Positions 14,361-62,674 of a stretch of DNA of 64,000 nt are shown one piece after another. Positions within the stretch are counted from its first letter, which is position 1. The number at the start of each line of letters is the position of its first letter. Source of the stretch: a virus; the UHGV virus genome UHGV-0279745; one strand, written 5' to 3'. A program made the translations under genes and the position numbers. The notes beneath the pieces are model-generated. The model had not been told where the DNA came from. It did not search any database and saw only the letters and a list, made by a program, of their open reading frames with translations.

Positions 14361-15560
14361 TTATTTCGTACCCGCTTCTGCCTGAACGTCATCACGGGAC
14401 GTCAAGTTAGCGTTAACGTGTACTGAAGCCTGAACCACACCACCGTATTTCTTGTGGAGATAGCCTGTGTGTGGGTTATCTGCCGCAATATGGTTTTGCA
14501 GGTTCTGATTCGCCTGACTGATCGCGTTCGTGTTATTCGCGACCTGTTGTTTAAGCGCATCCAAGTTTTGTTGCAGATTATCAATTTTCTGATCGGACTC
14601 ATTACCCCGCTGTTCTAACGCAGCAATGCGCTGAATCGCTTGATTGAGTTTGGTGCTCAGATCGTTGATATTTTTCTGTAACTGTAACACTAGCGAATTT
14701 AGGTTCGCCAATGCCAATGCCATTTTCTGGTAGTTTTGTGCAACGATGTTAAGTTGGTCGTTCCACGCTTCCAAAGATTTGACAACAGCATCAATACGTT
14801 TTCCTAACGCTTCATCCGCTTTCTTCAACGCATTAATATCAGTAATGGTTGCATCGATGGCAGACTGTACGTCACGGATAAGTGCACGGATCTCCGTTTC
14901 TGTTAACCCGTTAACCTGGTGAATATCCAGATGGTGGACGTTACCCGTGGCGTTAATGTGCGCGTTCAGCGCGTCCAGGAAATCGTTTTTCAGGCTTTCG
15001 AGAATCGCTTTGATGTTCTCAAGCTGTACAGCATCGCCCGCCGTTATCGCATCTTTAATGCCAGCGAGCACTGTAATGATATATTCGAAGCCGTAAATAT
15101 CGCCGACGTCTTTATACGTCGGTGCCGACGGAAATGTATCAGGAACATTTCGCAAGTCTTTAAAGCCAACAGTTCGATTATCGAGATTCAACTCAGCAAT
15201 CGCCTGTTCTATCGCAGTCACGTTTGCCGACTGCGGACCCCCGACTACTTGCGCCGATACCGTGATATCGGTCGGAATCGCGGTGTTCGTTACAACAACC
15301 GCCATTACCACTTCCCGGTTCTTCGTCAATTTCTCGTAAGCCGGGTGTGCAAAAATCAACTCATAGTCCGTTCCGCGCTCATACGTCGCATCGGGGCGGT
15401 TAGCAACCCGCAAGCGGAACGTATCAGCATAAAACGGACCGTCAGGAAAAGCAAACGCACGGTTAACTTTACCTGTGCCTAACGTAACCTGACGCTCCAC
15501 GGCGTTAGAGGTTAGGGTTCCCGTTAAATCTAAAGGGTATTGGTATACAATGGAGGCCAT
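14361..15560 (-). CDS. tail fibre protein (399 aa) with C-terminal coiled coil
   Basis: ATG with AAGGAGA RBS; N-terminal PDGPFY...GTDYEL domain shared with the three large fibres; heptad-rich C-terminus. Confidence 0.75.
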   Translation of the reverse strand: MASIVYQYPLDLTGTLTSNAVERQVTLGTGKVNRAFAFPDGPFYADTFRLRVANRPDATYERGTDYELIFAHPAYEKLTKNREVVMAVVVTNTAIPTDITVSAQVVGGPQSANVTAIEQAIAELNLDNRTVGFKDLRNVPDTFPSAPTYKDVGDIYGFEYIITVLAGIKDAITAGDAVQLENIKAILESLKNDFLDALNAHINATGNVHHLDIHQVNGLTETEIRALIRDVQSAIDATITDINALKKADEALGKRIDAVVKSLEAWNDQLNIVAQNYQKMALALANLNSLVLQLQKNINDLSTKLNQAIQRIAALEQRGNESDQKIDNLQQNLDALKQQVANNTNAISQANQNLQNHIAADNPHTGYLHKKYGGVVQASVHVNANLTSRDDVQAEAGTK

Positions 15561-15600
15561 GGCCACTCTCCTTAATCCGAGACGTCCTTGTCTCGTGGCG

Positions 15601-20784: not shown

Positions 20785-20794
20785 CGTAAAGACT

Positions 20795-20840
20795 CCTACT
20801 TTTAAATAAAATGGATACCCCTCCCCGTTACAGGGAGGGG
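20795..20840 (-). terminator. terminator between tail-fibre genes (minus-strand orientation)
   Basis: cccctccc-loop-gggagggg hairpin with U-rich tract on the minus-strand downstream side. Confidence 0.5.
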
Positions 20841-20878
20841 TTACCTACGGACACACAACTGCCCGCAGGCAGCCTGTC

Positions 20879-23800: not shown

Positions 23801-25081
23801 TGCAGCAACCCCAGTCGTTTCTGTACCTTTACCTGTTTTAAGTTTAGCGACGCCTTTTTCGGCGGTTGTCGCTTTTGTTGGGTCGATAGTCCCGACAATG
23901 GGATCGGCGCGAGAACCTTTACCGGTAAAGCTAATCCCATTACGACCTTCAATGTACACCTTCGAATCGTCAGGGTCGCCACCGCCACCAGAACCCGCAT
24001 CTGGATCTTGTTGGTATTCCATCAACGCCGTGGTAGTCAGTAACGGGTTACCGTTCAGGGTGAGTTTGTTCATCCCTAAAGCATCGCCTGTTGACTCGAT
24101 GCGTAATGTGTTTTTACCGGCACGCCAATTAATGTAACGTCCTGCACCTGTGCCTTCCAGATGTCCTACCGCTAATACCACAGAACCGTTGGATTTTAAC
24201 GTAAAACCATCGTTAGCAAAAATGATTTCGGACTCACCGTTTTTCGAACGGAACTGTGCGCGGTTTCCTGACAGCGTACAGTTAAACACGCCCCGTACTT
24301 CCGAAGAAATCCAGTGAGAGATATACGTGTCGATAACTGACTGGGGTAAACGAAACGCTTTCAGCTCATCCGTCAGTGCTTTCAACTTTAACCCGTAGGC
24401 CATAAAGGTGTCGGGCGTTTTCAAGTTAACAGGATGCGCGTTAATCTGCGCGGATGTGGTTTCGTGCGGGTTCTTCGCTGCGATATGTGCTGGGTAGTTA
24501 AATGCTTCGATTTCTTTACCCAACGCAGTCACTAACGCTTTAACTTCAGCTAATTTGTCTTTAATTAGCTGGTTAGCGTCGTCGGTTTTCAATTCAATAT
24601 CGTGAACTGCCGACGCTAAATATTTTTTGTTCAGCAAATCCGCCCAGGACGTTGCTGCTGGCGTCGCTGGATATAACGATGGTCTACCGTCTAATAACAA
24701 CCAGTCAGCACTGACTGGGTTATTCAAATATTTCACCAGTTCATCGAGAATATCAACAAACGGGTCGTAGAACGTACCGCCGAGCATTTGTCCTTCAAAG
24801 GTTACGATACCCTTGATGGATGGGTTGATAAGGTGTACCCCACAATACACGTTGGCTGCTACCGAGTCATCCAGTTCCGTCAGCTGATATTGCAGTTCGT
24901 AGTCCACCCCACGACTCAGTGGGGTGGTTGAACCTGGTTGTCTGACGACCAAATCTTCAAAGAACGGGCGGTGGTCTAAAATCACCACCCGATCGTTGTT
25001 ATTTTCTGACCCGATGATACGCTCCTCTAAGAAGTGATTCTCGGCTTTCGTCCCCCGAGGATCGTAAGGATACGCTTTCAT
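20879..25081 (-). CDS. long tail fibre protein (~1400 aa)
   Basis: ATG at 25081 with AAGGAG RBS; N-terminal DHRPFF...GVDYEL domain. Confidence 0.85.
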   Translation of the reverse strand: MKAYPYDPRGTKAENHFLEERIIGSENNNDRVVILDHRPFFEDLVVRQPGSTTPLSRGVDYELQYQLTELDDSVAANVYCGVHLINPSIKGIVTFEGQMLGGTFYDPFVDILDELVKYLNNPVSADWLLLDGRPSLYPATPAATSWADLLNKKYLASAVHDIELKTDDANQLIKDKLAEVKALVTALGKEIEAFNYPAHIAAKNPHETTSAQINAHPVNLKTPDTFMAYGLKLKALTDELKAFRLPQSVIDTYISHWISSEVRGVFNCTLSGNRAQFRSKNGESEIIFANDGFTLKSNGSVVLAVGHLEGTGAGRYINWRAGKNTLRIESTGDALGMNKLTLNGNPLLTTTALMEYQQDPDAGSGGGGDPDDSKVYIEGRNGISFTGKGSRADPIVGTIDPTKATTAEKGVAKLKTGKGTETTGVAATPASLAPYSTDLSGYVAKTTMINGKPMNDGSRTITKADLGLGQADNTADVDKPLSTELNAALSGLADAGHHHDWSELGIYKASQSVYGIGRYATNQNGLVENRAVVPNILKELSARLDVVAAAIANAKEGSVTDFAAVKGADWRFNSQGTAISVQDLKYFYLLNGAKADSAVTGSIDLQTTPMFNWFSPNNQIETTWPTGKVSAGKGINWTGIEEPPLMGFQSVPVGKTASQMGDQSVVTVLAKTRVRARQPKLWVYAAGGGPVTVYINGIQAATGQSPLVAVYETSADVENYTVAVKAECSDTAKSAAVQFEIYDGDYPVYFSGPETHVELLQEFVTTHVGIRHYLYVNMLTGSLYSRTEPIQSIAVDPERGYIGYVDIVAGESYSNKTVSFETTFDFGKSTEVSEHIDARKAHGLSSVDWTLTDNPRLPLLNRAIAEPRALIYRKTLGSGSGGTLCTLSRGLFSYSHGLNVKSDLELIFSTEGATPYCWFTPFNPKENNAPTFEGSFVFDVDDIGGTKALSAAPDLILCASSQGGTVGRRYVRINLTSKTCKVGVGAGSTSEVWHKSFELNNGSMLMDAGRETSVEITTKDVLFNGEVANAEILDLIGWGPNGDKISANHAPRGMIRYRYNVNTRVLRLALSFSQFGSTTINLRQIEMTLPFDLVDYFTGDGVGLAFNGLSEKCFLTINHALIDPKTGNIDIDKYHYLRSLFESYTDSSVGWLADSKDGDYYQKLIDPTTHVYELNYCPTETIALPTGQGSVAISHEGQLPAQFFPRKLSRGALMAKKGELHASWNNEWSTSKAAANRYRHKLILRFAQGADKQQYRVAKVTGTVKCNWPGKVIIGDAGKDAYVSAIDSVPFALSTSADTGKAVTLTPKDLRVGQDIYIVLEPPGNNPEGYELNFTCSLDVTDEKGVRQDQLNAQSFELRSGESQFLMEKRNPYHITSKAWKWILAVLKRELNGKQLGDRT

Positions 25082-25094
25082 CAAAAAATTCTCC

Positions 25095-28000
25095 TTAATC
25101 GCGAATGATTACCGCCTGCACTTTATTGTTGGTGTCGATAAACGACATTACGCGCTCCTTGTTAAGATAAGGAGGTATCGGTAACGCAGCGTAATCCGCC
25201 AGGTTGTTATTAAATTCAGTTGCCACTAACGCATTAAGCGTTTCGGGGTCTGAACTGACACCGGTCAATTCCATAACGCGCACACGATTTAATGAGGAAT
25301 AGTTGCTAATATAGTCTAACAACGTACCATAGACTTTATTCGCGGTTGCGCTGTCTGCCGTAGAACGGATGTTGGCACGAACCTCATCCTCATAAAGTCC
25401 CCCTAAACCGTAGTAAATAGGGGTATACGGATCGTTAACGATAGGTGCGATATTGAACCCTGTTAGACGGTCAGTTAGAGGGATTTTCTGCGTAGCTCCC
25501 CCTGCTGCCGTGCAACTTACGTATTTATCAGTCGCAGATAAAAACACCACGATGGTATACGTAGTGCCCGCTAAGGTCAATGTTGCGTTAAACGTTATTG
25601 CGTTATTTGCAGCACGGGTGTGGGTAAACGTTACGTCAGGTTGTAACGTATTCCACGGTGCAGGCGTAACACGCTTCGTTGGTGTGAAACCTAACACTAC
25701 CGATTTCCCGCTACCGAAGTTCAAACCGAACCCTGCGTAACAATATTCACCGTTGCTGTCAGTTAAACGATAACCACGAGTGATAAGTAACGACAACCGC
25801 ATAAACTCGCCGTCGGTGTTTTTCCAACAACCTAAAACAGTTTCTAGCACCGTGCCGGTTTTTGCGTTGCTTTCTGTTTCCCAACTGACTCGCATTCCTG
25901 CGTTCTTAAAAGCTGGGAACATGTTGTGGATAAACCCGTGTAGGTTATCGCTTACCCCTTTCGCGTCAAAAATCCACTTGGATGCGAGCTGGTCGTATTT
26001 CACCCCGTCTAAAGCTTTATACTGCCCACCGGCAACATAACGCCAATCTGCTTCACCGCGTACTACTGCCTGGAGTCCAGAAGCCCAGCAAGGCGCGCCT
26101 ACCGTTAAGTTAGCTAACCCAAGCGCTGCACGTGACGCGGAGCGCTGAATGTGTGCGTTGTCATCGGCTTTATGATCTTTCAGTTCACGGAAATCACCCA
26201 ACCGTGTGACATTACGCATTTCCGTAACGAACACCTCAGAAATGTCGTTAACACCAATCAACCCTACACGCGTCATGGTATCCGTTTCAGCCTGACTGTA
26301 GCTGTCGTGGACAATATACTTCGCTTTGTTGTCAACGATGTCAACAAAAATCCCTGCGTAGATTTCTGTATTCAATTTCGGAAAACGTTCACTGACGTTA
26401 ATCGTCATCAACGGAACGTCGTACGTTTCACCACCGATAAAATACGTTGAAGCTGGAAGCGTGACCAGAATTTTGTCTTTGACCGTAAGGTCTATTAAGT
26501 CGTTACCAGACTCACCAAAACGTATAATGTCAAGACGTGCCTCCGAGTCAACGCCGCCGACAGCGCGCTCCAATTTTTCAATCTGGGAAGTCTGCGCCAT
26601 TACCACACTCCCATCGAGTGCTAAAGTCGCATCATCCACATCCAGACCAAATTTAATCAGACCACGTTGCGCTGTGGTTGCGTTCCCAGTACCAAAAGCG
26701 GTAAACGGGTGTTGGTGAACTTTAGGCGAGTATTTATCTAACTCCGCACGTTGTGCTGTAGAAATCGGTAAATCAACATCAGGCGTATTCGCAACATTAC
26801 CTAAACCAAAGGTAATCTTATCGATAGTGACCGAGCTGGTAAGTTGCATGTCGTTAATGTACGATTTAACTGCAACTAACTTACCGGTGAACTCAGCATC
26901 GAGTTTTTTAATCAGTGCTGGCGTTGCTGCAAGGTTTTCAGCGGTACCGAACTCATCGGTCAACTGCCAAGCTGCCAGAGCTGTTGTATCAGTCGCGGTA
27001 GGGAGAATAAAGGTCGCTACGAACGGCGAGGCTTTTATCCCGCTACCGGTGATCGTAACCGTTGTTGTCGAGTTTGCGTAGAATAAACCTGTACCACCTG
27101 CGGTATTGCCTGGTAGATACGGGGCCACGGTGGTGGGGTCTAAAAGTTTTTTACCACGCCACAACAATCCTCGGTCATCAGGGTATAGCACAAGCTGGTT
27201 AGTACCTGCTTGGAACGTTACGGGGTTGTTACCCACGTTAACATCAGTTGAACCTTGGCCAATAAACTTGATGGATTTCGGATCAACGACAAACTGAGCG
27301 CCTAAACGTGTCTCGTCAACAACATCCGGTGCTTTCTTAATGGTAACCGTGTTACCTTTGTTTTGCGAACTAATGGTAACGGCGTCGGCAACATTATTGA
27401 TCAGCGATTTAAAGTGGTGCTGATTCTCTAATGCTTCTAACGCGGCGTCCATGTTATTGAAGTTAATCCGACCGCTATACGTTTTACTGTTTACGGTAAT
27501 AACGACGTCAAACACATTCCCTGTACGCTTCAGTTGAAAACGTAGCGCAAAATCCCCATCCGGTATTGCCGGATTAGGAGCTTGCGAAATATACCGAACT
27601 GCCGGTACCGGACTACCGTAACCGTGCAACGCCAGTTCGATAGTAAGAGTACCGGACCAGACTTCACCGCTAATCTCTACGTACTTACCGGAGTTACTAC
27701 CAGGATTTTCGTAGAAACGTAAACCAACCCTACCGACCGCTTCATTACCAGACGCTGTTTTACGTCCAGTAACAATAAAGTCAATATCTTGCAGGTTGGC
27801 AGGCACCGCATTAAAGTTAGCACTGAAACCGCTTTTCGCTCCTGTATAACGAAGCGCACCGTGATATCTGTGACCACTACTAACATAGCTTTCGCTAAAA
27901 TAAGGACTCACGTATTTCGACATCGAGACCGGATCAACTTCCGTCGTGAACGAAGTAAAACCCGGAAGTGTGGTAATCGTGCCGTTAACGTTCTTGCTCG

Positions 28001-29417
28001 CCGATTCACGAAGCAGTTTTTTCTGTGCGGTTAACGTTGCTTGTGTTGGGTACTTAGCATTAACGTAATCCGTTAACTGCTGTTTCGTTTTCCCGTAAGC
28101 TAACGCGGCATCCGACGCAATACCATTCAGTTCTAACGCACGGATCGGACCCCACGTATCGGTGTGCGGGTTGTCCTTACGTGTAACGTGTTCGTGTGCA
28201 GGCGCGTTACGATACAGCTGCTCAACTAACTGATGGTATTTAACTATTAACTGGTAAACATCGTTATCGACGTCAGGTTCTGGTGCGCCGGGTAAAGAAC
28301 GAATTTGAATATAATCGTTTTCGGCCGCATACCAGTTTAGATTAATGTTCGTTTTAAACTTCAACCATTTAGCAACATCCGTTTTCGAATACCCTGCCGA
28401 GAACTCATCAGGCGGCGTATCGACATTGAATGTGTAATCCATGGTCTGTTTATTTGTTTTTACTACGATGACGTAAACACCGTTTCCGGGTTGACGGGTT
28501 ACACTAAAATCGATATCGTTTTTTAACTCATCGTCAGTTAAACCGTTGATTAACGTATAATCGTAGTTTGTTGAACCGCTACCAATAGCGACCGTTAAGA
28601 CCAGTGAGATTTTGCGCTGTTTTAGCTGCAACCGTAGAATGCTTGCCCCGCCGTTAGCATAACAGAGCATCCAATCGATCTGTTCGTTTGGATTCAATTT
28701 CGTCATGTCTGGCAGAATAGCAGGAATTCTGTGTTTCACTGACAGGGCGTAGTCGTTAAAGGTTGCAGTTTTATAACTCAAGCTATAACGATGACGGGTA
28801 GTGTTGTAGGTGAAGCCACCTTTATTGTCGTATACGGCATACTGCTCGGAAGTGATAACCTTGCTATTAGCACGGTATTCTAAATCCAGGGTATTACGCG
28901 CGATGGGGTTAAGCCGACTCACGACTTCCCCTAACGAATCGCCTAATCCAGCAATAGCCTGCATTAATTCCAGTTCACCTTTCCAATTCTCCCAATCGAA
29001 CTGGATATCGACCGGCGGAAAGTAAACGTCCCCGATGACGGTGTCCCACTGACACGCAGACGGGTATTTATCTTTATTGAGTTCGCGTTCTGCGGTAATC
29101 TGTTGTTGGGTAGCCTGACCACAACCAACGGCGTGGTAATCTACCGTGAAATTCGATTTGTATTTGTCGTTAACAATCCAAATCATCCCGTGAATGAGAT
29201 AGGCTGTGCGCAACATACCGGTCTCGTACGGGTGTGTAATAACGTAATCGTCGCCTAAGGTCAGTGTTTTGCCGCCGCTCTTGACCACCAGGGATGTGGT
29301 GAAAAAAGGGGCGTGGGCAGGTACCAACATTCGGTATTTCGTACCAATGACGGCGACCGCTTCACCGGTTATTTTATTCCCCGGTTTTTTGAAGTGTGGG
29401 TCTAGGACGACAGCCAT
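25095..29417 (-). CDS. long tail fibre protein (1440 aa)
   Basis: AGGAG RBS; N-terminal AHAPFF...GDDYVI domain. Confidence 0.85.
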   Translation of the reverse strand: MAVVLDPHFKKPGNKITGEAVAVIGTKYRMLVPAHAPFFTTSLVVKSGGKTLTLGDDYVITHPYETGMLRTAYLIHGMIWIVNDKYKSNFTVDYHAVGCGQATQQQITAERELNKDKYPSACQWDTVIGDVYFPPVDIQFDWENWKGELELMQAIAGLGDSLGEVVSRLNPIARNTLDLEYRANSKVITSEQYAVYDNKGGFTYNTTRHRYSLSYKTATFNDYALSVKHRIPAILPDMTKLNPNEQIDWMLCYANGGASILRLQLKQRKISLVLTVAIGSGSTNYDYTLINGLTDDELKNDIDFSVTRQPGNGVYVIVVKTNKQTMDYTFNVDTPPDEFSAGYSKTDVAKWLKFKTNINLNWYAAENDYIQIRSLPGAPEPDVDNDVYQLIVKYHQLVEQLYRNAPAHEHVTRKDNPHTDTWGPIRALELNGIASDAALAYGKTKQQLTDYVNAKYPTQATLTAQKKLLRESASKNVNGTITTLPGFTSFTTEVDPVSMSKYVSPYFSESYVSSGHRYHGALRYTGAKSGFSANFNAVPANLQDIDFIVTGRKTASGNEAVGRVGLRFYENPGSNSGKYVEISGEVWSGTLTIELALHGYGSPVPAVRYISQAPNPAIPDGDFALRFQLKRTGNVFDVVITVNSKTYSGRINFNNMDAALEALENQHHFKSLINNVADAVTISSQNKGNTVTIKKAPDVVDETRLGAQFVVDPKSIKFIGQGSTDVNVGNNPVTFQAGTNQLVLYPDDRGLLWRGKKLLDPTTVAPYLPGNTAGGTGLFYANSTTTVTITGSGIKASPFVATFILPTATDTTALAAWQLTDEFGTAENLAATPALIKKLDAEFTGKLVAVKSYINDMQLTSSVTIDKITFGLGNVANTPDVDLPISTAQRAELDKYSPKVHQHPFTAFGTGNATTAQRGLIKFGLDVDDATLALDGSVVMAQTSQIEKLERAVGGVDSEARLDIIRFGESGNDLIDLTVKDKILVTLPASTYFIGGETYDVPLMTINVSERFPKLNTEIYAGIFVDIVDNKAKYIVHDSYSQAETDTMTRVGLIGVNDISEVFVTEMRNVTRLGDFRELKDHKADDNAHIQRSASRAALGLANLTVGAPCWASGLQAVVRGEADWRYVAGGQYKALDGVKYDQLASKWIFDAKGVSDNLHGFIHNMFPAFKNAGMRVSWETESNAKTGTVLETVLGCWKNTDGEFMRLSLLITRGYRLTDSNGEYCYAGFGLNFGSGKSVVLGFTPTKRVTPAPWNTLQPDVTFTHTRAANNAITFNATLTLAGTTYTIVVFLSATDKYVSCTAAGGATQKIPLTDRLTGFNIAPIVNDPYTPIYYGLGGLYEDEVRANIRSTADSATANKVYGTLLDYISNYSSLNRVRVMELTGVSSDPETLNALVATEFNNNLADYAALPIPPYLNKERVMSFIDTNNKVQAVIIRD

Positions 29418-39880: not shown

Positions 39881-40489
39881 ATGAACGAAATTACATTAGT
39901 TCGTTTTCTTGAAGCGATGCAAAATGCAGAGCGCTTTTCGCATACGCCTTTATTCATTGACTTAATGGAAGAAGAAGTAGAGGGATTCCTGGCATACCCT
40001 CGCTTACGGGAATATTTTAAACGTAAAACACCGACTGCTTACGAAAAGTTGGTTTACGCGCTTGAGAACAGTACAACATTGTTAACGTCACCTTTTAAGG
40101 CGTTGGAGGCTTTAGACCCGGCTGGTACCACAAGTATCCCACAACGTGTCGTGTTCTACTATATCGACCACGATCGAATCAAAGCCGATGTTGTTAACTG
40201 GATCTCTGAAAACGCAGTTCCTGAAACACGCACTTTTAATCTCTGTCCTGTAGAAGAAGGGTGGAAGGTCGGTAGCCACTATTCTTACCCGTACCAATCC
40301 ATTAAATCGCCGTTTTTATACCCGGTTTATCTGGATGACGTTACACCTGGAAATTGTATCCCGGTAACAAATCTGATCTGTACATTGACGATGGAAGTCT
40401 TAGCCACAAAGGCGGGACAGGTTTGGGTAGAAAACACGAAGAACGTCGATTATTGGACTTCAATGGGTTATCACCTGTACACCAAATAA
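39881..40489 (+). CDS. hypothetical protein (202 aa)
   Basis: AAAGGAAAG RBS. Confidence 0.7.
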   Translation: MNEITLVRFLEAMQNAERFSHTPLFIDLMEEEVEGFLAYPRLREYFKRKTPTAYEKLVYALENSTTLLTSPFKALEALDPAGTTSIPQRVVFYYIDHDRIKADVVNWISENAVPETRTFNLCPVEEGWKVGSHYSYPYQSIKSPFLYPVYLDDVTPGNCIPVTNLICTLTMEVLATKAGQVWVENTKNVDYWTSMGYHLYTK

Positions 40490-40493
40490 CGTT

Positions 40494-40535
40494 TGGGAGA
40501 ACCTTCGGGTTCTCCCTTTCTTTATTTTTTTTTCT
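40494..40535 (+). terminator. rho-independent terminator
   Basis: gggagaacc-ttcg-ggttctccc followed by long T-run. Confidence 0.7.
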
Positions 40536-40569
40536 TTTTACACCACACTCCGTCTTTATGGAGGTGGGT

Positions 40570-43074
40570 ATGCTAAAAGTTGAACGGATTATACTCAAAG
40601 GTTTTACGGGGATGGGATTACATGAAATTGAAACCTTCGATTTCACTATCCAGTCTCCGACAACAATTATCCTGGGTGGGAACGGCTGCGGGAAAACCAG
40701 TCTACTGTCTGTGTTCCTACCCTTAGCACCGGCTAAAACCGAATTCAGGGACGGCGGTTCTTACACAAACTACTGTTTAGTTGGCGATCAACGCTATCGT
40801 TTCAAAGTTGCCCGTAAAGGCAACTCTTTGGTTTGCGATATTGAGAACCTGACCACGGGGGCAAAGATCGTCGAGCAAGGTAATGCGAAAGTCTACAACT
40901 CCCGTGTTGAAGAAATCACAGGTATTACAAAAGAGATTAAAGAATTATTAAATGGTGAGGTGTTGTTAACCGATGCGGGAACCGAATTACGCCGCAAATG
41001 GTTTTACCGTTTAAGTACCTCTGATCTCACTTACGCGTTAGGGTTTTATCAACGTTTACGTAAAAACCTTACTGCCTTAAATGGGGGTATTGAAATCACC
41101 AGCCGTAAGATCGCCGAATTACGGACGCGTGTTATTGAGAACGAGGAAGAACGGCAGCAGTTAGCGACGAGATTAAAAGGTTTGGAATCGGATTTACGTG
41201 AACTGAACCGAGAAATCGAACAGTTACCAGGATTAAATCGTGCCGTCACCATCGAAACAATCCAAGCGTTATTAAACAGCTTGGGTCCAACCATCGACGC
41301 AATATTACAACATCGTGGTGGATTGCCTACTGATGAACAGATACTGGCCGCGCGACAAAACGAAGCGACGGCCCGCGAAGCCGTCGTGTCTACTGAAACA
41401 GAGGTATCGATGTTGAATAAAGACTTGTCGCTACTGATGGATGAGTCGACACGACAAGACTACCTGATGCGGAATCACGAAGGTCTCAAGAATACACTGG
41501 CACGTTTACGTGAGTTACTTACCAAATGGGACACCGAGCATCTCTTTCCGGGTTTATTTAACGACAACATCAATTTAGACCAACTTCGTGCGGCTACCGA
41601 CGCGCGTGTTTGGGGGCAACGGTTAGGAACAACACTGGACGCAATTCATTCAACCGAAAAACTTAATGTTTTGGAAGAACGGCTTCTGGTGATGGATCAA
41701 AAAACCGCAGGGTTGCGGGATAGACTCCAGCGAGTGGAGAACGTTTTACAGAATTTAAATCACGAACGTAATCACTACTTAGAAACAGCGGAAGTGGATT
41801 GCCCGCAGTGTCGGTTTAAGTTCCGTCCTGGCGTTACGCGTTCTTTACCTGAACTTGAGTCTTCGATTCGCGGACAACAACAGCAGCGCACGGAACTGCA
41901 AACGCAGTTAGAGACTCTATTACGCGATCGTGTTGAGTTAGAATCCGATGTAACTTATATGCGGCAGGTTCGTGAGATTGTACTGACGTATTCAAAGGAC
42001 CCGGTATTGAGCATGTTCTTTAAGCGTTTGCAAGAACGTAACGTTTTCACAGAATCACGTGAACAGTTCGGGAGTCTATGCGCAGCGTTTGACAGTGAGT
42101 TGTACTCTGCTATTGAGTACCATGAAACCCGTCAACGGTTAGTGAAGGCGGAAAAAGAATGGCAGGATGCCGTGGCGGCCGTTGGTAACGTCGATGGTGC
42201 TTTACAACAGAAAATTGCTTTCCAACAGTCACGATTAGGTAAAGCCACAGAGATGCTCTCAATGCGTCGTAGAGAGTACGAACTGGCTAACACGACACTT
42301 ACCTATCTGGTGAATGTTAAACGTGCTGTAGATGATTTCAGTGCGTTATTCGAACGGTTAGAGAGTGATGTTAAGGTTACGTTGACAAATACGGTCGTCG
42401 AGGAACTCTTACGTGCACGAGAAGGGAAGCTGGATGCTTTTACAACCGCACGCGAACGTTATCGTCAGATGGAAAATGAATTGAATCAGCTCAACAGTTT
42501 GGAACGCGAACTTGCTGACTTACAAGCCCAGCAATTCAATAACAAACTGATGATTCAAGCCTTCTCTCCAGAAAAGGGTGTACTTAGAAAGTATTTTTAC
42601 AACGCTATCGTTAGAATCACAGAGTTAATGACGCGTTATATCGAACAGGTCTGGACGTACCCCATGCGCGTTATGCCTTGTGACCTCACTGACGGCGATT
42701 TGGATTATACTTTTCCTGTCCAGCTAAAAACGCATCCTGAGCCTGTTCCTGACGTGCGTAAAGGGTCTAAGGCGCAGCGTGCGATATTTAATCTGATGTT
42801 CAGGCTGACTGCGTACAAAGCGCTGAAGTTGCATCAGTTTCCGTTGCTTTTGGATGAGCCTTCGGAAGGCATGGATGAGGAGCACCGTAACAACCTGGTC
42901 GGTTTTATTAAAACGTTAGCAAACTCGGGAGAATTTTCCCAACTGTTGGTAGTCTCCCACGAAGCCGAGGTTCATTCTAAACTTAATGAAGCATCGTACT
43001 GTGTCATCGAACCGGAAGGGGTGACATTGCCTGCGGTGTATAACGAAGGAGTAAAAATTGTTTATGCAAACTGA
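40570..43074 (+). CDS. SbcC/Rad50-like recombination ATPase (835 aa)
   Basis: Walker A GGNGCGKTS, long coiled-coil middle with CPQC zinc-hook-like motif, Walker B LLLDEPSEGMD, VSHEAE H-loop region; GGAGGTG RBS before ATG 40570. Confidence 0.8.
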   Translation: MLKVERIILKGFTGMGLHEIETFDFTIQSPTTIILGGNGCGKTSLLSVFLPLAPAKTEFRDGGSYTNYCLVGDQRYRFKVARKGNSLVCDIENLTTGAKIVEQGNAKVYNSRVEEITGITKEIKELLNGEVLLTDAGTELRRKWFYRLSTSDLTYALGFYQRLRKNLTALNGGIEITSRKIAELRTRVIENEEERQQLATRLKGLESDLRELNREIEQLPGLNRAVTIETIQALLNSLGPTIDAILQHRGGLPTDEQILAARQNEATAREAVVSTETEVSMLNKDLSLLMDESTRQDYLMRNHEGLKNTLARLRELLTKWDTEHLFPGLFNDNINLDQLRAATDARVWGQRLGTTLDAIHSTEKLNVLEERLLVMDQKTAGLRDRLQRVENVLQNLNHERNHYLETAEVDCPQCRFKFRPGVTRSLPELESSIRGQQQQRTELQTQLETLLRDRVELESDVTYMRQVREIVLTYSKDPVLSMFFKRLQERNVFTESREQFGSLCAAFDSELYSAIEYHETRQRLVKAEKEWQDAVAAVGNVDGALQQKIAFQQSRLGKATEMLSMRRREYELANTTLTYLVNVKRAVDDFSALFERLESDVKVTLTNTVVEELLRAREGKLDAFTTARERYRQMENELNQLNSLERELADLQAQQFNNKLMIQAFSPEKGVLRKYFYNAIVRITELMTRYIEQVWTYPMRVMPCDLTDGDLDYTFPVQLKTHPEPVPDVRKGSKAQRAIFNLMFRLTAYKALKLHQFPLLLDEPSEGMDEEHRNNLVGFIKTLANSGEFSQLLVVSHEAEVHSKLNEASYCVIEPEGVTLPAVYNEGVKIVYAN

Positions 43075-51724: not shown

Positions 51725-51766
51725 CCCTCCTGTACCCATTCGTGGTACAGGAGGGTCTTTCTTTTT
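51725..51766 (+). terminator. rho-independent terminator
   Basis: ccctcctgtacc-loop-ggtacaggaggg followed by T-run. Confidence 0.7.
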
Positions 51767-51810: not shown

Positions 51811-52545
51811 ATGACCTACCCAAAAATTGTCACCCCGTACACACCGACGCTGGTTATTGGTGCTGATGCTGAAACCAAATCATTACGCCCCGATGCTTAT
51901 CTGTTAAGTGCGGGTTTAGTGGCTTTTGACGTCCCTACATTGAAAATGGTCGGTTCCTCATACATCAGGATCGATCCTAACGATCCTAAAGCAAAAGCCA
52001 TTTTCCACGAAGACCCACAAACCGTTGGTTGGTGGGAAGGTAAAGGCGAACCCGAATACGCACCGTCTCGTGAAGCCTATGCGGAAGCATGGGGTGGGAC
52101 GACAGCATTGCCAGACGCGCTCTGGGCGATGCAAAAATGGCTCGGGGAGATCACCGCAAAACACGAGTTTGTGATTACCATGCGTGGTCCTGACTTCGAT
52201 GCGCCGATTTTCATGAACGCATTCGCACAATGTGATATTCCGCCAGGGAAGTTCCGTAAATTCAGTGCACTGGATAGCGATCGTACCGCAGAACGTTTAG
52301 CCTTTGCATTTGGGTTCGAGCCTGACCTAACCGTAGAGCAAATTTACTGGACACGCGGTAAGCCCGCTTTTGAGCACCACGCTATGTGGGATGCGGCAAA
52401 AGAAGCCTACACCACGGCACGTATTTACCACCTCGCTTTGGTCACTCGCCAATACGGGTTTGAACGCGCCAAAGCCTGTCACGAAGAACTGAAAACGGGC
52501 GAGTATGTTGCGCCGCAGATTCGTGATCAATTAACCAGGGATTAA
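51811..52545 (+). CDS. DEDDh-type 3'-5' exonuclease-like protein (244 aa)
   Basis: Exo I-like VIGADAET, Exo II-like RGPDFDAPIF, Exo III-like HHAMWDA motifs. Confidence 0.6.
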   Translation: MTYPKIVTPYTPTLVIGADAETKSLRPDAYLLSAGLVAFDVPTLKMVGSSYIRIDPNDPKAKAIFHEDPQTVGWWEGKGEPEYAPSREAYAEAWGGTTALPDALWAMQKWLGEITAKHEFVITMRGPDFDAPIFMNAFAQCDIPPGKFRKFSALDSDRTAERLAFAFGFEPDLTVEQIYWTRGKPAFEHHAMWDAAKEAYTTARIYHLALVTRQYGFERAKACHEELKTGEYVAPQIRDQLTRD

Positions 52546-52547
52546 GA

Positions 52548-54068
52548 ATGAAGAACGTTGATGTTGCAGTAATTTACACGGATGGTAGCCATTTGACCTC
52601 CCCGCTCGGTACAGGAGCGGGGATTCATGGATACTTATTTAATCGTGAAGCGATTGAGGATGGTCGGGTTTACCGTCATCCCTCTATTCCCGAGGGGATT
52701 ACGACGTCAGGATACCGCCAGATAAACAAGGATGAAAAACTTCCACCTTTACCAGAAACCGTGGAGTTTATTGACGGTGTTGTGCCTGTACCAAAAATGT
52801 CACACTCCGACGTTGCAGAACTCGTGGCTTTCCTGACCGTCTTCGAACACGCACCTTTCGTTGCCAAAAACTATGTTATCTATATCGATGCCTCTTACGT
52901 TGTCAACACGTATAACGATTGGATTGATGGTTGGGCTGCACGCGGTTGGCGTCGTGCAGACGGTACGCCTATTGCGAACTTGGAATTAATCCAACGGATG
53001 TGGGAGGTTAAACAGCGGTTAAAGAAAGAAGGGAAAGGTATTCGTGTCCTTAAAATTAAAGGGCACTCAGGACGCTATGGAAACGAGCGTGCCGACGAGT
53101 TAGCACGGAAAGGTTCAAGTATTTCGGCTCGAGGTGAGGGGTTAGACTATACACCGTATTGGTCAAAAGACGAGATGCCTGAGGAAGAACAGCAACCAGA
53201 AGTTGTTGGTGAAGGTGTCAATTTGTCTGCTTTTCCCGATATCTGTGTTACGAAGTTCTGTTACCCGATGGTGAACGAACCGCATCCCACTGTTACAGTT
53301 AACGGTAATAAACTTTATTACATGTTCGGTGGGAACCATGCAAAACAGAAGGACGATATCGTCTTCGTTGGTAAGTACATTCCAGATGCACAATTCTGCG
53401 TAATGTTTACCAAAGAACCATGGAACAACGTATACGAGTTGGTAAATACCCACTCTGCGAAAGCGTGGGAAGGGGTGCCCCGTTTACGTCAGTTTGATCC
53501 CATTGCCGTTGTTTTTAACTTATTCGTAAAACGTAAGAAGTTCGCAGAAGCCGCAGGTAACGGTATTCCTGTCGATCGGATGCATTTTAGCGAAGACAAA
53601 AACCTGTGGATGTTTGAAGATCTTTCGATTACACGAATTCTTCGTCCCGCGTTATTGTCTTATCGCTGCATTACGATTCGTGATGAGCTTGCAGGTTGGT
53701 TACGCGATGCCATGGAGGGGAAAAACTCAGTCGTAATGAACGACATTACTGACCTGCTTTACGATGAGAAAGGTAAGCCGAAGAAAGACTTTTATCGTAA
53801 CGTAGATAAAGGTTTTGACGTAACTATCCATATCCCTGGTAGTAAAAACAAGGTTAAAACCATCCTTACTCGAGGTATCGACATACCGACGCGTACGGAA
53901 ATCAACCGTATGAAAGAACCAGAAGGACGATTCTACGTGGCGGTACGGCGTCCAGAACGGCAGTATATCGAGTACGCGTTGGTTTATATTGGGGAAAAAT
54001 ATCATGGGTTGTGGTGTGGCTATTATTCAAACAAACGAATATTGACGGATAAGGAGCTTGAATGCTGA
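52548..54068 (+). CDS. RNase HI-like domain fused to a ~310-aa C-terminal extension (506 aa)
   Basis: N-terminal IYTDGS, AELVA, IDAS and GHSGRYGNERADELA motifs match the RNase H fold catalytic residues. Confidence 0.7.
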   Translation: MKNVDVAVIYTDGSHLTSPLGTGAGIHGYLFNREAIEDGRVYRHPSIPEGITTSGYRQINKDEKLPPLPETVEFIDGVVPVPKMSHSDVAELVAFLTVFEHAPFVAKNYVIYIDASYVVNTYNDWIDGWAARGWRRADGTPIANLELIQRMWEVKQRLKKEGKGIRVLKIKGHSGRYGNERADELARKGSSISARGEGLDYTPYWSKDEMPEEEQQPEVVGEGVNLSAFPDICVTKFCYPMVNEPHPTVTVNGNKLYYMFGGNHAKQKDDIVFVGKYIPDAQFCVMFTKEPWNNVYELVNTHSAKAWEGVPRLRQFDPIAVVFNLFVKRKKFAEAAGNGIPVDRMHFSEDKNLWMFEDLSITRILRPALLSYRCITIRDELAGWLRDAMEGKNSVVMNDITDLLYDEKGKPKKDFYRNVDKGFDVTIHIPGSKNKVKTILTRGIDIPTRTEINRMKEPEGRFYVAVRRPERQYIEYALVYIGEKYHGLWCGYYSNKRILTDKELEC

Positions 54069-54730
54069 TCGTTTATAGTGAGGTCTTGTCAAAAGCCCCC
54101 CGGTTTTTACAAACTCACTTTATGTATAACGCACGGCAGTATTGGGGCTTTAAAGCCCCTTACTCCGAAGATTGGGAAGTTGTGGAAAAGTTAGCATTTG
54201 TGTTTTCTCTTTCGTTGTTGTGGGAGATCATTGCACTATACAACGCGGGTTGTGATATCCCGGAGAACGGCTTTTTCCAACAACACCTATTCCAAAAATT
54301 CACAGCATCGGTAGAAAATCATGAAGTGCGCAAGGAGTGTATCGGCTACGCAGAGCATTCTGAAGAATTGAGAAAGATTTCCAAATTAGTTATCACGCGG
54401 ACATGGGCTGAATTCGAAACTTACCCCGAAAAAATAATTTGGTTTAATCGTGAACAGTTTATTAAAGAGGCAGTCAGTCAACATCCCGTTCGACTAATCG
54501 TGTTAAAGCCGTCAGATCTCGCCTTACGCCACATCTATTCGTCTCCAGAGGAAATCGTTTTTTCCTCTGGAACAACAGATTATGGTATTTTTAAACAAGG
54601 CGATTCTTGGATTCTTCCACACGATTTAGACGGGTATTTGCTCAGTAGCGATCAAATACATTCGGGTTATGACTCACAGGTGAAGGAGTTTACAGTCGAT
54701 CCTTTTTTCGCTAAAAATATTCTTAGATAG
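54062..54730 (+). CDS. hypothetical protein (222 aa)
   Basis: AAGGAGC RBS; overlaps upstream stop. Confidence 0.65.
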   Translation: MLIVYSEVLSKAPRFLQTHFMYNARQYWGFKAPYSEDWEVVEKLAFVFSLSLLWEIIALYNAGCDIPENGFFQQHLFQKFTASVENHEVRKECIGYAEHSEELRKISKLVITRTWAEFETYPEKIIWFNREQFIKEAVSQHPVRLIVLKPSDLALRHIYSSPEEIVFSSGTTDYGIFKQGDSWILPHDLDGYLLSSDQIHSGYDSQVKEFTVDPFFAKNILR

Positions 54731-57066: not shown

Positions 57067-57072
57067 TAGACA

Positions 57073-57103
57073 CCCTAGCTTCGGCTAGGGTTACTTTATT
57101 TTT
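57073..57103 (+). terminator. rho-independent terminator
   Basis: ccctagc-ttcg-gctaggg followed by ttactttattttt. Confidence 0.65.
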
Positions 57104-57125: not shown

Positions 57126-58052
57126 ATGTATTTGTACAAAAGTAAAAAAGTAAAAGGTATTAAAGACTGCCTTAGACAAATGGGGTCTCAGCATCTTGAA
57201 AATGTAATGGAAGAAAACCGAATAAAGGAAAATCCTGTCTCGAAATGGATAAAAAAGAATCGTAACCATTTAACCAATGCCTTTATACCTTACGACGCTG
57301 AGTTAGGTCTCAAAGATCCCCGTTCCCTTCACGCACAAACATTAGCAATTGGATGGCTATACGGTGGTGCTTCCTTAATATCCAACCAAGCACTTAGAGA
57401 ACTTGTTTTCGAGACTGAGATGCCCAGTAAATTCCCTGAAGAATGGTTGGACTTTATACCTACCTGGACTGTGGCAATCGACGTAGGTAAAGAGGATGAG
57501 ACTTTCTTTCTCGGCTATCGAAAAAACGGGAATAGAAGGTTTATCATAATTGCTACAAATACTGATTACGGGTTAACAGAAGGCGTTACCACAATTGCCA
57601 CTTGTTCGTTAGAGCTTCGTAGTGCAGGAAACGGGCTTGTGGAAATCGACTATGCCGACGGTGTGGAGAACGAACAAGAAAAGATGCTATGGTTATCTCT
57701 GGCCAAAGCCGCTACTTCGATGATATTTCTGTGCACGCTAATCCCGCCCAATTACAGGGAGTCTTTTAATGATATTAAGTTCAAGGAAATCAAAAAGAAC
57801 GGTAGTATTAGTTACGACGTTAAACCTCGTGAACGCGATGTTAAGATAGATATCACGCCAGGACAAGTGAATTATCTAAAAGGGTTTAACACTGACTTGA
57901 AAACCATGCAGGGTATCAAACATGCTAAGGCTGCCCACATCCGTCGCGCTCACTGGCGCAGATATTGGGTCGGCCCTAGAAATGGTGAAAGAAAAAGAAA
58001 ACTTTGTTGGATTCCACCTACATTTGTCCGTGGCTACGTACCCCACAATTAA
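57126..58052 (+). CDS. hypothetical protein (308 aa), paralogue of 58077-58976
   Basis: Leader ttttaggagaataaaccATG; C-terminal AHIRRAHWRRYW motif. Confidence 0.7.
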   Translation: MYLYKSKKVKGIKDCLRQMGSQHLENVMEENRIKENPVSKWIKKNRNHLTNAFIPYDAELGLKDPRSLHAQTLAIGWLYGGASLISNQALRELVFETEMPSKFPEEWLDFIPTWTVAIDVGKEDETFFLGYRKNGNRRFIIIATNTDYGLTEGVTTIATCSLELRSAGNGLVEIDYADGVENEQEKMLWLSLAKAATSMIFLCTLIPPNYRESFNDIKFKEIKKNGSISYDVKPRERDVKIDITPGQVNYLKGFNTDLKTMQGIKHAKAAHIRRAHWRRYWVGPRNGERKRKLCWIPPTFVRGYVPHN

Positions 58053-58076
58053 GCTAAAGTGTTTAGGAGTATTAAA

Positions 58077-58976
58077 ATGACAACGAATAATAGACTTTAC
58101 GGGAAAGCGCTAAGACGCATGAGCGAACAAATAGAAAAGGCACACCAAACAATTCACGGATTAGATCAGTGTCGTTTTATTCGGTTCATTAACGAGCATA
58201 AACGTCAAATACCCGTAACGTTTATACCAGTTAAAGATCCGACCTATCGTGAGTATGGCGTTACAGAACAGATTCCCAGACTGATTAAGCAGTCTCTGGG
58301 ACTAGGATGGCAATACGCTGCTGTTGAAATCATCTCGGATGAAGAACTGATGGCGCTCTTAGCAAAAACTGAGAGACTAAAAAATATCCCGTACTTCTGG
58401 ATAGAAACCATCCCTTCATTTACTTTCTCGGTTACTGTAAATCTCGACGAAAGTCCAATCACGTTATTTATCGGAAGACGTCTTTACGAAGGTGAAGAAG
58501 TTCTCTTTGTGATGTCATGCGAAGAACATGGCGAGTCGGTATACATGGAGTTTGAGATTTACACGATCGACAAAAGTAATGATGATTTCGTGGAGTTAAA
58601 GCCGCTCCTTACTTCGGTTAAGGAGAATCAACGACTACTCGACGCGGTCTACATCGGGCTATATCTTTCATCACGAATTAAGCGAACCGAACGTGAGAAG
58701 AAAGAATTTCGCGGAAGGTCCATTCGTTATGTTCCTGATACAGAAATTCGCCCACGTAGTGAAGCAGTCGTTTTAGATGTAAGTCCGGTACAATGGGAAG
58801 ATATAGAGCAGCAACGCAAGGAAGGACACGAGGTTTGTTTGGCGATTTATTGCGCCGCACATATCCGTCGTGCGCATTGGAAGCGTGTATGGTGTGGTAA
58901 AATGTCAGAAATGCGCTGGCGCGAATGGCGATGGATAGCGCCGAGTTACATTTCTGGATTTTATCGTGGGAAATAA
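58077..58976 (+). CDS. hypothetical protein (~299 aa), paralogue of 57126-58052
   Basis: Leader taggagtattaaaATG; C-terminal AHIRRAHWKRVW motif. Confidence 0.7.
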   Translation: MTTNNRLYGKALRRMSEQIEKAHQTIHGLDQCRFIRFINEHKRQIPVTFIPVKDPTYREYGVTEQIPRLIKQSLGLGWQYAAVEIISDEELMALLAKTERLKNIPYFWIETIPSFTFSVTVNLDESPITLFIGRRLYEGEEVLFVMSCEEHGESVYMEFEIYTIDKSNDDFVELKPLLTSVKENQRLLDAVYIGLYLSSRIKRTEREKKEFRGRSIRYVPDTEIRPRSEAVVLDVSPVQWEDIEQQRKEGHEVCLAIYCAAHIRRAHWKRVWCGKMSEMRWREWRWIAPSYISGFYRGK

Positions 58977-58983
58977 ATAGTTT

Positions 58984-59031
58984 ACCCCTAGACCGTGTGG
59001 TCTAGGGGTAACTTTACTTTTTTATTTTTTG
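58984..59031. terminator. bidirectional terminator
   Basis: acccctagacc-gtgt-ggtctaggggt followed by long T-rich tract; convergent genes. Confidence 0.7.
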
Positions 59032-60190: not shown

Positions 60191-61687
60191 ATGGCAGGCC
60201 CAACTAAGCAAGTTATCGGTGAAGTAATTCGTCCACGTTTTAACGTTTACACCATCATGGATCATGCCTTAGGTAACTACGAAAAAGGTGAAGATGGTTT
60301 GTACTACCTTAACGGTGGTTTTGCCCACATCATGGGTTTCGCAGGTCGCGGTAACACTTTTAAATCCACCTTGTTAGATTTCTGTATCTTCCAAATCCTG
60401 CAACGTTATAAAGCAGAGTGGGGTTCTAAGTACGATACAGAAGTGTCCGCTGCCCTCGATCGTTTAGAAACTGGGTACATCTCTGCCATGAACGCCAACG
60501 GTATCGACGACGGAACATCTGTACTGGAGCTTATCCACGAAGGTCGTTATAACCTGGTCGGTTCTGACGTAATGCCTGGGGAACAGTATTACAGTGATTA
60601 TATTCGTGATGAAGTTGAAAAACGCTTCAAACAGTATATGTCTGGTAAGACCCGTGTAACACCGTTCCCCGATCCGGTTCGTCGTAAGTTAAAAGAAATC
60701 CTGGACCCCTGGCTTTATTCTATCGACTCCCTGTCAGAGTGGCATTCCAGTTCGCTGGAAGACAAACACGCAAAAACGGATATCGGGGATTCTGATCAGA
60801 ACATCCTGAACGCCCACGACGCACTGCAAAAATCGAATATGATGAGCCGCTGGCCGTCTGCGTTTGCACGCGGCGGTTTTTACATGGGCTTCGTGGCACA
60901 GATGGCCGATGACTCTGGGAAAGCGATGGCGGGTGGCCGACAGGCTCAAAAAGCAAATGCGAAAATTCTCGACGACGCCAACGACGATTTAAAATTCGCA
61001 GGTATTCCTCGACGTCAGCTTAGCTTTTTAACAAACTCTTTTATCGTCGCGACGAAATCAGGTGAGCTGAAGAAAGACCAGAGCTATAACGCACAGACCG
61101 GTGTTAACGAAGAACTTTATCCGACGTCACGTTCTAAAGCGATGAATGCGTCGGTAAACGACTTGAAGATTATCACCTTTACCCAGTATCGTGCGAAGGG
61201 TGGTCACACCGGTGTGAAATTCCAGATGATCTTCTCTCAGGAAATGGGTCTGTTGTATCACCTGAGCCTGTGGCATTATTTAAGTGACACGCTGAAGAAG
61301 TCAGACTTTGGTTTCACATCAAGCGGTAGTGGAGGTTCCATCAAAGAACTTGACATTCTACCTGGTGTGAAATTCCAACGCACGACAATCCGTGATATGA
61401 TTTCTGATAACGCACGCTTACGTCGCGCTTTAGAAATCACTGCGGCAATTGCGTATATGCAAAACAACTACCATCGTCTTGAAATGAAGTATCATCTCAG
61501 CATGGGTGAGATTTACAAACTGATTGACGAGAAGTGGGACTGGAATGAAATTCTGGATAACACGGTAGAATACTGGATGTTTAAAGACCAGGAAACCAAA
61601 GGCGGTAAACGTACACTGACTGCACGTACCATTCTGGGTATGGCTGTTGATGGGCTAGAACCGAAGTTCCTGACGAAAAAGAAATAA
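60191..61687 (+). CDS. RecA/UvsX-like recombinase-type ATPase (498 aa), tentative
   Basis: P-loop-like GFAGRGNTFKST; Walker B-like LYSIDSL; recombination-gene neighbourhood. Confidence 0.5.
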   Translation: MAGPTKQVIGEVIRPRFNVYTIMDHALGNYEKGEDGLYYLNGGFAHIMGFAGRGNTFKSTLLDFCIFQILQRYKAEWGSKYDTEVSAALDRLETGYISAMNANGIDDGTSVLELIHEGRYNLVGSDVMPGEQYYSDYIRDEVEKRFKQYMSGKTRVTPFPDPVRRKLKEILDPWLYSIDSLSEWHSSSLEDKHAKTDIGDSDQNILNAHDALQKSNMMSRWPSAFARGGFYMGFVAQMADDSGKAMAGGRQAQKANAKILDDANDDLKFAGIPRRQLSFLTNSFIVATKSGELKKDQSYNAQTGVNEELYPTSRSKAMNASVNDLKIITFTQYRAKGGHTGVKFQMIFSQEMGLLYHLSLWHYLSDTLKKSDFGFTSSGSGGSIKELDILPGVKFQRTTIRDMISDNARLRRALEITAAIAYMQNNYHRLEMKYHLSMGEIYKLIDEKWDWNEILDNTVEYWMFKDQETKGGKRTLTARTILGMAVDGLEPKFLTKKK

Positions 61688-61731: not shown

Positions 61732-62031
61732 ATGCGTTATCAAACGGAGATTGTGGAACGCTTAAGTGAAGGATTGGCAAGTGTTAATTTAGAAACAGCG
61801 GCCGAATTTCGTGAAGCCTTCACTCACCCGTTTCCCGATCTGGAATCCTTTTGTTTAAAGGTCGCTGAGTATTACTCGAATCTATTAGTACGTTACGGGT
61901 ATGCGCCAGTACGTTCCGAACTTCCTGAAAACACGGAAGCTATCAGCTACTGGATTGACCTGCTTGAAGCAGAAACGTTATCCAATTTACGTAAGGCGGT
62001 AGACAATGAAACTCGAACCAGCGCGGCGTAA
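61732..62031 (+). CDS. hypothetical protein (99 aa)
   Basis: AAGGAG RBS. Confidence 0.55.
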   Translation: MRYQTEIVERLSEGLASVNLETAAEFREAFTHPFPDLESFCLKVAEYYSNLLVRYGYAPVRSELPENTEAISYWIDLLEAETLSNLRKAVDNETRTSAA

Positions 62032-62674
62032 AAAGGCGGAAGCCTACGCCTTACAAATCTTAAAGTTGGTAGACCCTTCTGGCATTAATGCTGAAGCCGC
62101 GAAGAAAGCCTTCGCACGAATGACCGACGAACAGTTTAACCGACTTCGTAACGGTTTACCTATTTACAACCCGGTGGGAAGTAAAGTCGAAATTGACCAC
62201 CTGCGCAATATCGAGGTGTGCAAAATTCTCGGGGTAAACCTGGAGCAACGACTCTGGTTAACAGAACCAAAAACGGGTGTTTATCACCGTACTCGTTACC
62301 CTCACTTAGTCTTACGCTTGCCTGTCCGTCGTCAGACACAGATGCAAGAAAAGAAAATGGCGGTTGCGAAAAACGACAAAGTTCGCGATAAACTCTCCGG
62401 TCAAGTCGTCGGACCTTCCAAAGCATCCGGGGTGTCCTTCCCAGAGGCATACATCATGTATTCCGATGGTCACGACTGGACACTGAAAGAGTTCTTGTGG
62501 GCGCGTGGTGGTAACGACGCACTACAACGTGCTTTCTATCAATCTCTGCGCCAAACCGGTAAAGGGCGTATTGATTTGCCTGGAGCGGAGCGAACGAGTT
62601 CTAAAGCAACGCGTACGTGGTCAGCGTACCTAAAAGCGATGCATATCGGTAACAACATAGGCCATCCGTCATGA
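62006..62674 (+). CDS. hypothetical protein (222 aa)
   Basis: ORF overlapping neighbours. Confidence 0.6.
   Translation: MKLEPARRKKAEAYALQILKLVDPSGINAEAAKKAFARMTDEQFNRLRNGLPIYNPVGSKVEIDHLRNIEVCKILGVNLEQRLWLTEPKTGVYHRTRYPHLVLRLPVRRQTQMQEKKMAVAKNDKVRDKLSGQVVGPSKASGVSFPEAYIMYSDGHDWTLKEFLWARGGNDALQRAFYQSLRQTGKGRIDLPGAERTSSKATRTWSAYLKAMHIGNNIGHPS

Follow-up and report, generated by a model that had tools for sequence, protein, structure and literature searches.

The DNA analyzed here is a 64-kb stretch of viral sequence, referred to below as the window. Its ORF listing contains, on the forward strand, an ATG-initiated ORF at 52548..54068 that encodes 506 amino acids. The protein is about 3.3 times the size of a stand-alone RNase HI (155 aa), in agreement with a preliminary description of the same DNA, which had put the ratio at roughly three. 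The PHROGs family phrog_3265 covers residues 1–504 with an E-value of 4e-170, and an identical 506-aa protein with the same neighbours is present on 12 independent public metagenome-assembled contigs, among them the 163,933-bp Logan contig ERR7366519_395; together, these two results rule out a chance origin of this 506-aa RNase H gene. Opposite-strand ORFs of 63–96 aa lying within it had no support and were disregarded. Throughout, we use the name Rhc (RNase H-clamp), which comes from two October 2026 preprints (PMC13648698, PMC13648687). The gene and its surroundings are laid out as follows:

40354-43074, + strand: SbcC-like nuclease subunit, flanking the rhc region
51725..51755, + strand: terminator-like hairpin with a 12-bp stem and a T-rich tail, just upstream of the exonuclease gene (consensus scan)
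51811..52545, + strand: DEDDh 3'-5' exonuclease, Rv2179c-like, 244 aa, not part of Rhc (PF16473, phrog_255, motifs)
52548..54068, + strand: rhc gene as assigned here, coding for a 506-aa RNase H-clamp protein orthologous to PhiKZ gp155/Nlp2, Goslar Rhc, and Asesino gp226
54062..54730, + strand: 222-aa ORF, phrog_9472 (function unknown, E 6e-15), whose ATG overlaps the rhc stop by 7 nt
57072-57091, + strand: terminator-like GC-rich hairpin with a T-rich tail (consensus scan)
60191-61687, + strand: UvsX-like recombinase, colinear with Goslar_00243
62006-62674, + strand: split RNA polymerase beta piece, colinear with Goslar_00240

The exonuclease gene, rhc, and five small ORFs are all encoded on the + strand and are packed between the hairpins at 51725-51755 and 57072-57091. 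As read from the sequence, this arrangement suggests a single transcription unit, with the hairpin at 51725..51755 as a possible 5' boundary of the exo-rhc unit; the scan that produced both hairpins used consensus only, and its total number of sites in the region was not above that in shuffled sequence. The downstream 222-aa gene was also called on four metagenomic contigs.

The ORF upstream of rhc matched PF16473 (Rv2179c-like 3'-5' exoribonuclease) with an E-value of 2.5e-11 and phrog_255 ('exonuclease') with an E-value of 3.8e-44. Its DEDDh-type motifs are GADAET at position 17, GPDFD at 126, and HHAMWDA at 189, and a PDB sequence search with the 244-aa protein returned no match. The junction between the two genes reads GAT TAA GA ATG, leaving a 2-nt spacer, and AGGGA stands upstream of the rhc ATG. 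The preliminary description was thus accurate in placing the RNase H gene directly after a DEDDh-type exonuclease gene at this spacing.

Several further features were observed elsewhere in the window. Two adjacent radical-SAM domain genes, at 9992-11314 (-) and 11298-12221 (-), both match phrog_1802 and lie in a jumbo-phage structural region. At 14361-29417 (-), four paralogous genes for virion structural proteins of 435, 1727, 1401, and 1440 aa follow one another and carry modules of phrog_2163, 7449, 8078, and 7557; this set looks like the expanded family typical of SPN3US-like phages. Tandem paralogues at 57126-58052 (+) and 58059-58976 (+), both phrog_6160, precede a bidirectional terminator-like hairpin at 58982-59011.

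Domain architecture of the 506-aa protein

The protein has two domains joined by an acidic segment, with the following features, all on the + strand:

[quoted passage not shown]
52581..52583: codon of catalytic D12 (equivalent of E. coli RNase HI D10), D in 43/44 sequences, the exception being N-terminally truncated
52641..52763: ~40 family-specific residues (32-72) inserted after strand 2 and before strand 3 of the RNase H fold
52818..52820: codon of catalytic E91 (E48 equivalent), invariant
52887..52889: codon of catalytic D114 (D70 equivalent), invariant
53064..53096: segment GHSGRYGNERAD, running from the catalytic His H173 (H124 equivalent) to the fourth carboxylate D183 (D134 equivalent), both invariant in 44/44
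53142..53243: acidic, partly disordered linker, residues 199-232, pI 4.05 (pLDDT <50 at 209-218; composition)
53244..54065: C-terminal domain predicted to be sliding-clamp-like, residues ~233-506, pI 8.95
53331..53345: GNHAK motif, residues 262-266, with G262 invariant and H264 and K266 at least 90% conserved
53646..53666: PALLSYR motif, residues 367-373, with P367, L370, Y372, and R373 at least 90% conserved

All four RNase H motifs that had been assigned to the first ~190 residues were located in the window protein: YTDGS (10-14), AELVA (90-94), IDAS (113-116), and GHSGRYGNERADELA (172-186). Pfam RNase_H (PF00075) matched residues 81-190 with 75 bits against a cut-off of 25.8 (E 8.8e-21), and phmmer against the PDB aligned residues 86-191 with E. 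coli, Thermus, and human RNase H1 (E ~1e-11). A weak separate phmmer match joined residues 8-25 to strand 1 of RNase HI. Because the matches to RNase HI are split in this way, into 8-25 and 86-190 with the stretch between them unmatched, an insertion of ~40 residues is placed between strands 2 and 3. AlphaFold2 modelled the insertion as structured (pLDDT 91-95), and in the alignment the Goslar and PhiKZ proteins carry an insertion of comparable length between the same strands.

The catalytic Asp/Glu residues, on whose conservation the preliminary description had made its reading depend, were checked in a 44-sequence alignment: E91, D114, and D183 are present in all 44 sequences and D12 in 43. 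D114 corresponds to D119 of Goslar and D102 of PhiKZ, whose mutation yielded the nuclease-dead proteins (PMC13648698, PMC12571901). The invariance of the catalytic residues across 44 diverse homologues argues for selection on catalysis. For the window protein, the present analysis thus establishes an intact active site within a two-domain architecture.

The linker segment is acidic and low in complexity. AlphaFold2 modelling of the whole protein gave a pLDDT of 90 and a pTM of only 0.57, and in the model the RNase H and clamp domains appear to be joined by a flexible linker; flexible linkage of the RNase H domain has been reported for PhiKZ Rhc (PMC13648687).

For the C-terminal part, annotation and structure prediction had been proposed as a check, and both were performed. 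Pfam assigned the domain to no clamp sequence family; its sole hit was sub-threshold (BNR_3) and was judged to be noise. In the PDB sequence search, no solved chain spanned the domain. Modelled alone, the domain reached a pLDDT of 85 and a pTM of 0.84, and the predicted fold resembles the PCNA, 9-1-1, gp45, and beta clamps together with the herpesvirus processivity factors UL44, PF-8, and BMRF1. A clamp-like fold is accordingly what the present analysis finds in the model of this domain, and a Foldseek search of BFVD recovered the same domain in other jumbo-phage 'ribonuclease H' proteins. Residues 199-506 used alone as a tblastn query retrieved PhiKZ gp155, PhiPA3, and PCH45.

GNHAK and PALLSYR are the two most conserved motifs of the C-domain in the 44-sequence alignment, and both contain residues that correspond to published Goslar mutants. 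K266 aligns with Goslar K259, which is among the residues changed in the DNA-binding mutant, and the positions of L370 and Y372 are occupied in Goslar by L363 and W365, which were changed in the polymerase 'assembly' mutant (PMC13648698). The correspondence as a whole is partial: at the five Goslar DNA-binding positions the window protein has three basic residues (R233, K259, and R318 correspond to K236, K266, and K330), K262 and R264 fall opposite D269 and I271 where the alignment contains indels, and of the five assembly residues only the L370 and Y372 positions are clearly conserved. A catalytic role for the conserved GNHAK-KDD motif was considered and rejected, since the His is not kept in Goslar and the Lys matches one of the residues altered in the Goslar DNA-binding mutant.

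Orthologues, gene order, and phage lineage

Over its whole length the window protein could be aligned with PhiKZ gp155 (25% identity, E 7e-31), and over residues 68-497 with the 508-aa Goslar Rhc (24% identity, E 5e-26). The preliminary description had called the C-terminal part a large unknown domain; an extra domain is indeed present, but the full-length match to PhiKZ gp155 and Goslar Rhc means that it is unknown no longer. All eleven residues named in the preprint's mutants are present at the stated positions of Goslar_00246, which identifies this protein as the preprint's Rhc. With respect to numbering, the gp190 (Rhc) of the preprint is Goslar_00246 in record MK327938, where the tag Goslar_00190 designates an unrelated 364-aa protein; the preprint is best matched to this record by sequence.

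Searches of phage genomes by tblastn retrieved full-length orthologues from Asesino (gp226, 66%), phiEaH2, the SPN3US group (~64%), CR5 (47%), and others, and remoter full-length matches from phiKZ-like phages and from Ralstonia, Serratia, and Vibrio jumbo phages. Erwinia phage Asesino, whose gp226 is 66% identical, is the nearest relative in culture. Gene order in the window matches Asesino gp221-gp235, and five window genes including rhc are colinear with the Goslar_00240-00249 block. Orthology and synteny of the window Rhc are thus directly observed here. A megablast search with the exo-rhc region against 50,697 phage records returned no match; this result, together with the occurrence of the protein on metagenome contigs only, indicates that the window represents a distinct uncultured lineage related to the Asesino/SPN3US phages.

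The family Chimalliviridae includes the genera Erskinevirus (Asesino) and Seoulvirus (SPN3US), and experiments have shown that Asesino forms a chimallin nucleus, with gp039 as its verified chimallin (PMC11724907). The chimallin and polymerase genes are absent from the 64-kb window, and tblastn with PhiKZ or Goslar chimallin returned ~100 records, none of them from the Asesino/SPN3US clade; simple BLAST is not adequate for family assignment from so divergent a protein as chimallin. Because these genes lie outside the window and tblastn is blind to the clade, assignment of the window phage to Chimalliviridae rests on its relatives, synteny, and taxonomy. An orthologue of DNAP-C was found in Asesino, the SPN3US group, and CR5, so the expected partner of Rhc exists in the clade. 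Taken together, we consider it very probable that the window gene encodes the Rhc of an uncultured, nucleus-forming chimallivirus that is kin to Asesino and SPN3US. The Rhc family is already known, and the window adds a new, uncultured, and divergent orthologue to it.

When 1.84 billion representatives were searched with a C-domain profile, 971 clusters matched. Among the best 150 of these 971, nearly all proteins are 450-560 aa long and carry the C-domain at ~200-510, after an RNase H domain of ~200 aa; this pattern of length and position in the best 150 clusters indicates that fusion to RNase H is the rule for the C-domain. Short 'clamp-only' proteins were considered as stand-alone clamps, and the one that was checked (P0071) proved to be a contig-end fragment. 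Separately, Rhc homologues of 668-752 aa (P0075, P0094, P0096, P0126, and P0153) carry an in-frame N-terminal module of GIY-YIG / I-TevI type followed by a complete Rhc. In P0094 (locus L012:4001-6037), the ORF is complete within a 16.8-kb contig and has as neighbours the divergent virion genes also present in the window. These proteins could be genuine homing endonuclease fusions or read-through gene calls.

Function of Rhc and alternative readings

PhiKZ gp155 (Nlp2) was described in a 2025 Nature paper as a core protein of Chimalliviridae with an RNase HI domain, essential for nucleus maturation and genome amplification (PMC12571901), and Rhc is essential in both PhiKZ and Goslar (PMC12571901, PMC13648698). 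In the PhiKZ cryo-EM structure, a single Rhc, with no ring, sits on a split B-family polymerase composed of DNAP-N gp82 and DNAP-C gp50; the emerging duplex is held jointly by the clamp-derived C-domain and the polymerase thumb, and Rhc strongly raises primer extension (PMC13648687). In Goslar, replication and the transcription of a late-gene subset both need Rhc. For this transcription, the catalytic activity of the RNase H and DNA binding through the clamp are both needed, whereas polymerase binding is dispensable, a pattern that was read as R-loop removal (PMC13648698). An in silico interaction screen for PhiKZ and GFP-Rhc pull-downs in Goslar identified DNAP-C, PicA, a RuvC-like nuclease, and RNA polymerase subunits (PMC13648698).

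By homology with these orthologues, which are 24-25% identical to it, the window Rhc most likely binds the polymerase and DNA, has RNase H activity, stimulates synthesis, removes R-loops, and localizes to the phage nucleus. The clamp would grip duplex DNA leaving the polymerase active site, a grip that would shift the enzyme from exonuclease activity to processive synthesis, and the flexibly tethered, catalytically competent RNase HI domain would remove RNA annealed to the template. Independently of the polymerase, the RNase H of Rhc would also resolve R-loops that arise from transcription uncoupled from translation in the phage nucleus. The invariant active site, together with GNHAK and PALLSYR residues that match Goslar mutant residues, supports extension of the published Rhc model, at the level of sequence, to a third chimallivirus lineage.

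PhiKZ and Goslar conflict on whether replication needs RNase H catalysis. PhiKZ gp155 is a bona fide RNase H, and its D102N variant fully complements a knockdown (PMC12571901); in vitro, polymerase stimulation by the Goslar protein survives the D119N change and is also seen with the clamp domain by itself (PMC13648698). Such results would fit an RNase H domain that is mainly structural or a sensor, with an essential job that is non-catalytic, whether polymerase scaffolding, licensing of amplification, or PicA/Imp1-dependent nuclear cargo. We regard this as rather unlikely, given that the catalytic residues do not vary among the 44 homologues, that the PhiKZ and Goslar proteins are both active RNases H in vitro (PMC12571901, PMC13648698), and that Goslar D119N rescues replication only partly and transcription not at all (PMC13648698). 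Far less probable still, to the point of being hardly credible, is a C-domain that forms a true ring, an oligomer encircling DNA with several RNase H heads. The likeness of its predicted fold to PCNA, 9-1-1, gp45, and the beta clamps would fit such a ring, as would the lack of any other recognisable clamp in chimalliviruses (PMC13648698, PMC13648687), to be set beside the single Rhc of the PhiKZ structure.

The interpretation in the preliminary description is borne out in part. It had further suggested a coupled nuclease module for primer removal or DNA processing. In the full form of this idea, the RNase HI fusion and the DEDDh exonuclease would be translationally coupled, with the RNase H nicking or removing RNA primers, the 3'-5' exonuclease trimming the products, and the C-domain serving as an adaptor. 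The 2-nt spacer, the AGGGA upstream of the ATG, and the terminator-like hairpin upstream of the pair are consistent with this, and the adjacency is kept in Asesino (where gp225-gp226 show the same exo-rhc order), phiEaH2, the SPN3US group, CR5, and four metagenomic contigs. It is absent, however, in Goslar, where the PF16473 protein is Goslar_00147, ~100 kb from the rhc gene Goslar_00246, and in PhiKZ, where no exonuclease lies beside gp155 and the small ORFs gp154 and gp156 are found there. The exo-rhc adjacency is specific to the Asesino/SPN3US/CR5 clade. In several Erwinia phages, moreover, the upstream gene is annotated as hypothetical only, and tight packing is usual throughout the operon, the next gene itself overlapping rhc. 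No such exonuclease appears in the PhiKZ in silico screen or the Goslar Rhc pull-downs (PMC13648698). Because the adjacency is clade-limited and the exonuclease was not recovered with Rhc, the module is unsupported beyond operon packing, and we judge it very unlikely. Slightly less so, though still unlikely, is a narrower version in which the exonuclease is a clade-specific extra partner of the Rhc–polymerase machine in the Asesino/SPN3US/CR5 clade, including the window phage. If this were true, the exonuclease might degrade RNA or DNA 3' ends left by RNase H at R-loops or primers, and the two-nuclease module would be real in that lineage and not family-wide.

Comparison with known systems

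Rhc, the reading preferred here for the window gene, accounts for replication in nucleus-forming jumbo phages, in which neither a sliding clamp nor a primase is recognisable. The preliminary description rightly sensed the extra C-domain as the interesting part; the field has already settled its identity, and no new question is opened by it.

Among characterized proteins, PhiKZ gp155 (Rhc/Nlp2) and PhiPA3 gp176 share the two-domain architecture, a similar length (482 versus 506 aa), and the same catalytic residues, and their clamp domain is matched by sequence alone. Compared with PhiKZ, identity is low, the acidic linker of the window protein is longer, and the neighbourhood differs, gp154 and gp156 replacing the exonuclease. 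Goslar Rhc is of near-equal length (508 aa) with a similar domain boundary (~200-210), its D119 corresponds to D114, and it is flanked by virion, UvsX-like, and RNA polymerase genes that run colinear with those of the window. It differs in its 24% identity, in K262 and R264, which are non-basic in the window protein, and in an exonuclease gene that is not adjacent. Asesino gp226 and the SPN3US 'putative ribonuclease H' (phrog_3265) are closest, with 66% and 64% full-length identity and the same local order including the exonuclease, although they have no nucleotide-level (megablast) match to the window.

Among cellular enzymes, E. coli RnhA and the human RNase H1 catalytic domain resemble the window protein in fold, in their DEDD plus His active site, and in having the basic protrusion. 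Unlike the single-domain RnhA (~150 aa), the window protein is three times larger, has a ~40-residue insertion and a C-domain of ~300 residues, and belongs to a family whose orthologues are integrated into a polymerase complex. The modelled C-domain is alike in fold to PCNA, 9-1-1, T4-type gp45, Pol III beta, and the monomeric factors UL44, PF-8, and BMRF1, and a processivity-factor role beside a B-family polymerase is drawn from the orthologue literature (PMC13648687). In contrast to ring clamps, it has no membership in their sequence families and is covalently fused to a nuclease, and PhiKZ Rhc forms no closed ring (PMC13648687). Retroviral reverse transcriptase likewise integrates RNase H physically with a DNA polymerase, an analogy drawn in PMC13648698, and HIV RNase H chimeras are among the phmmer matches of the window protein in the PDB. 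Unlike the RNase H of reverse transcriptase, Rhc associates with its polymerase transiently and non-covalently; that polymerase is a B-family enzyme that copies DNA templates, and no reverse transcription is involved.
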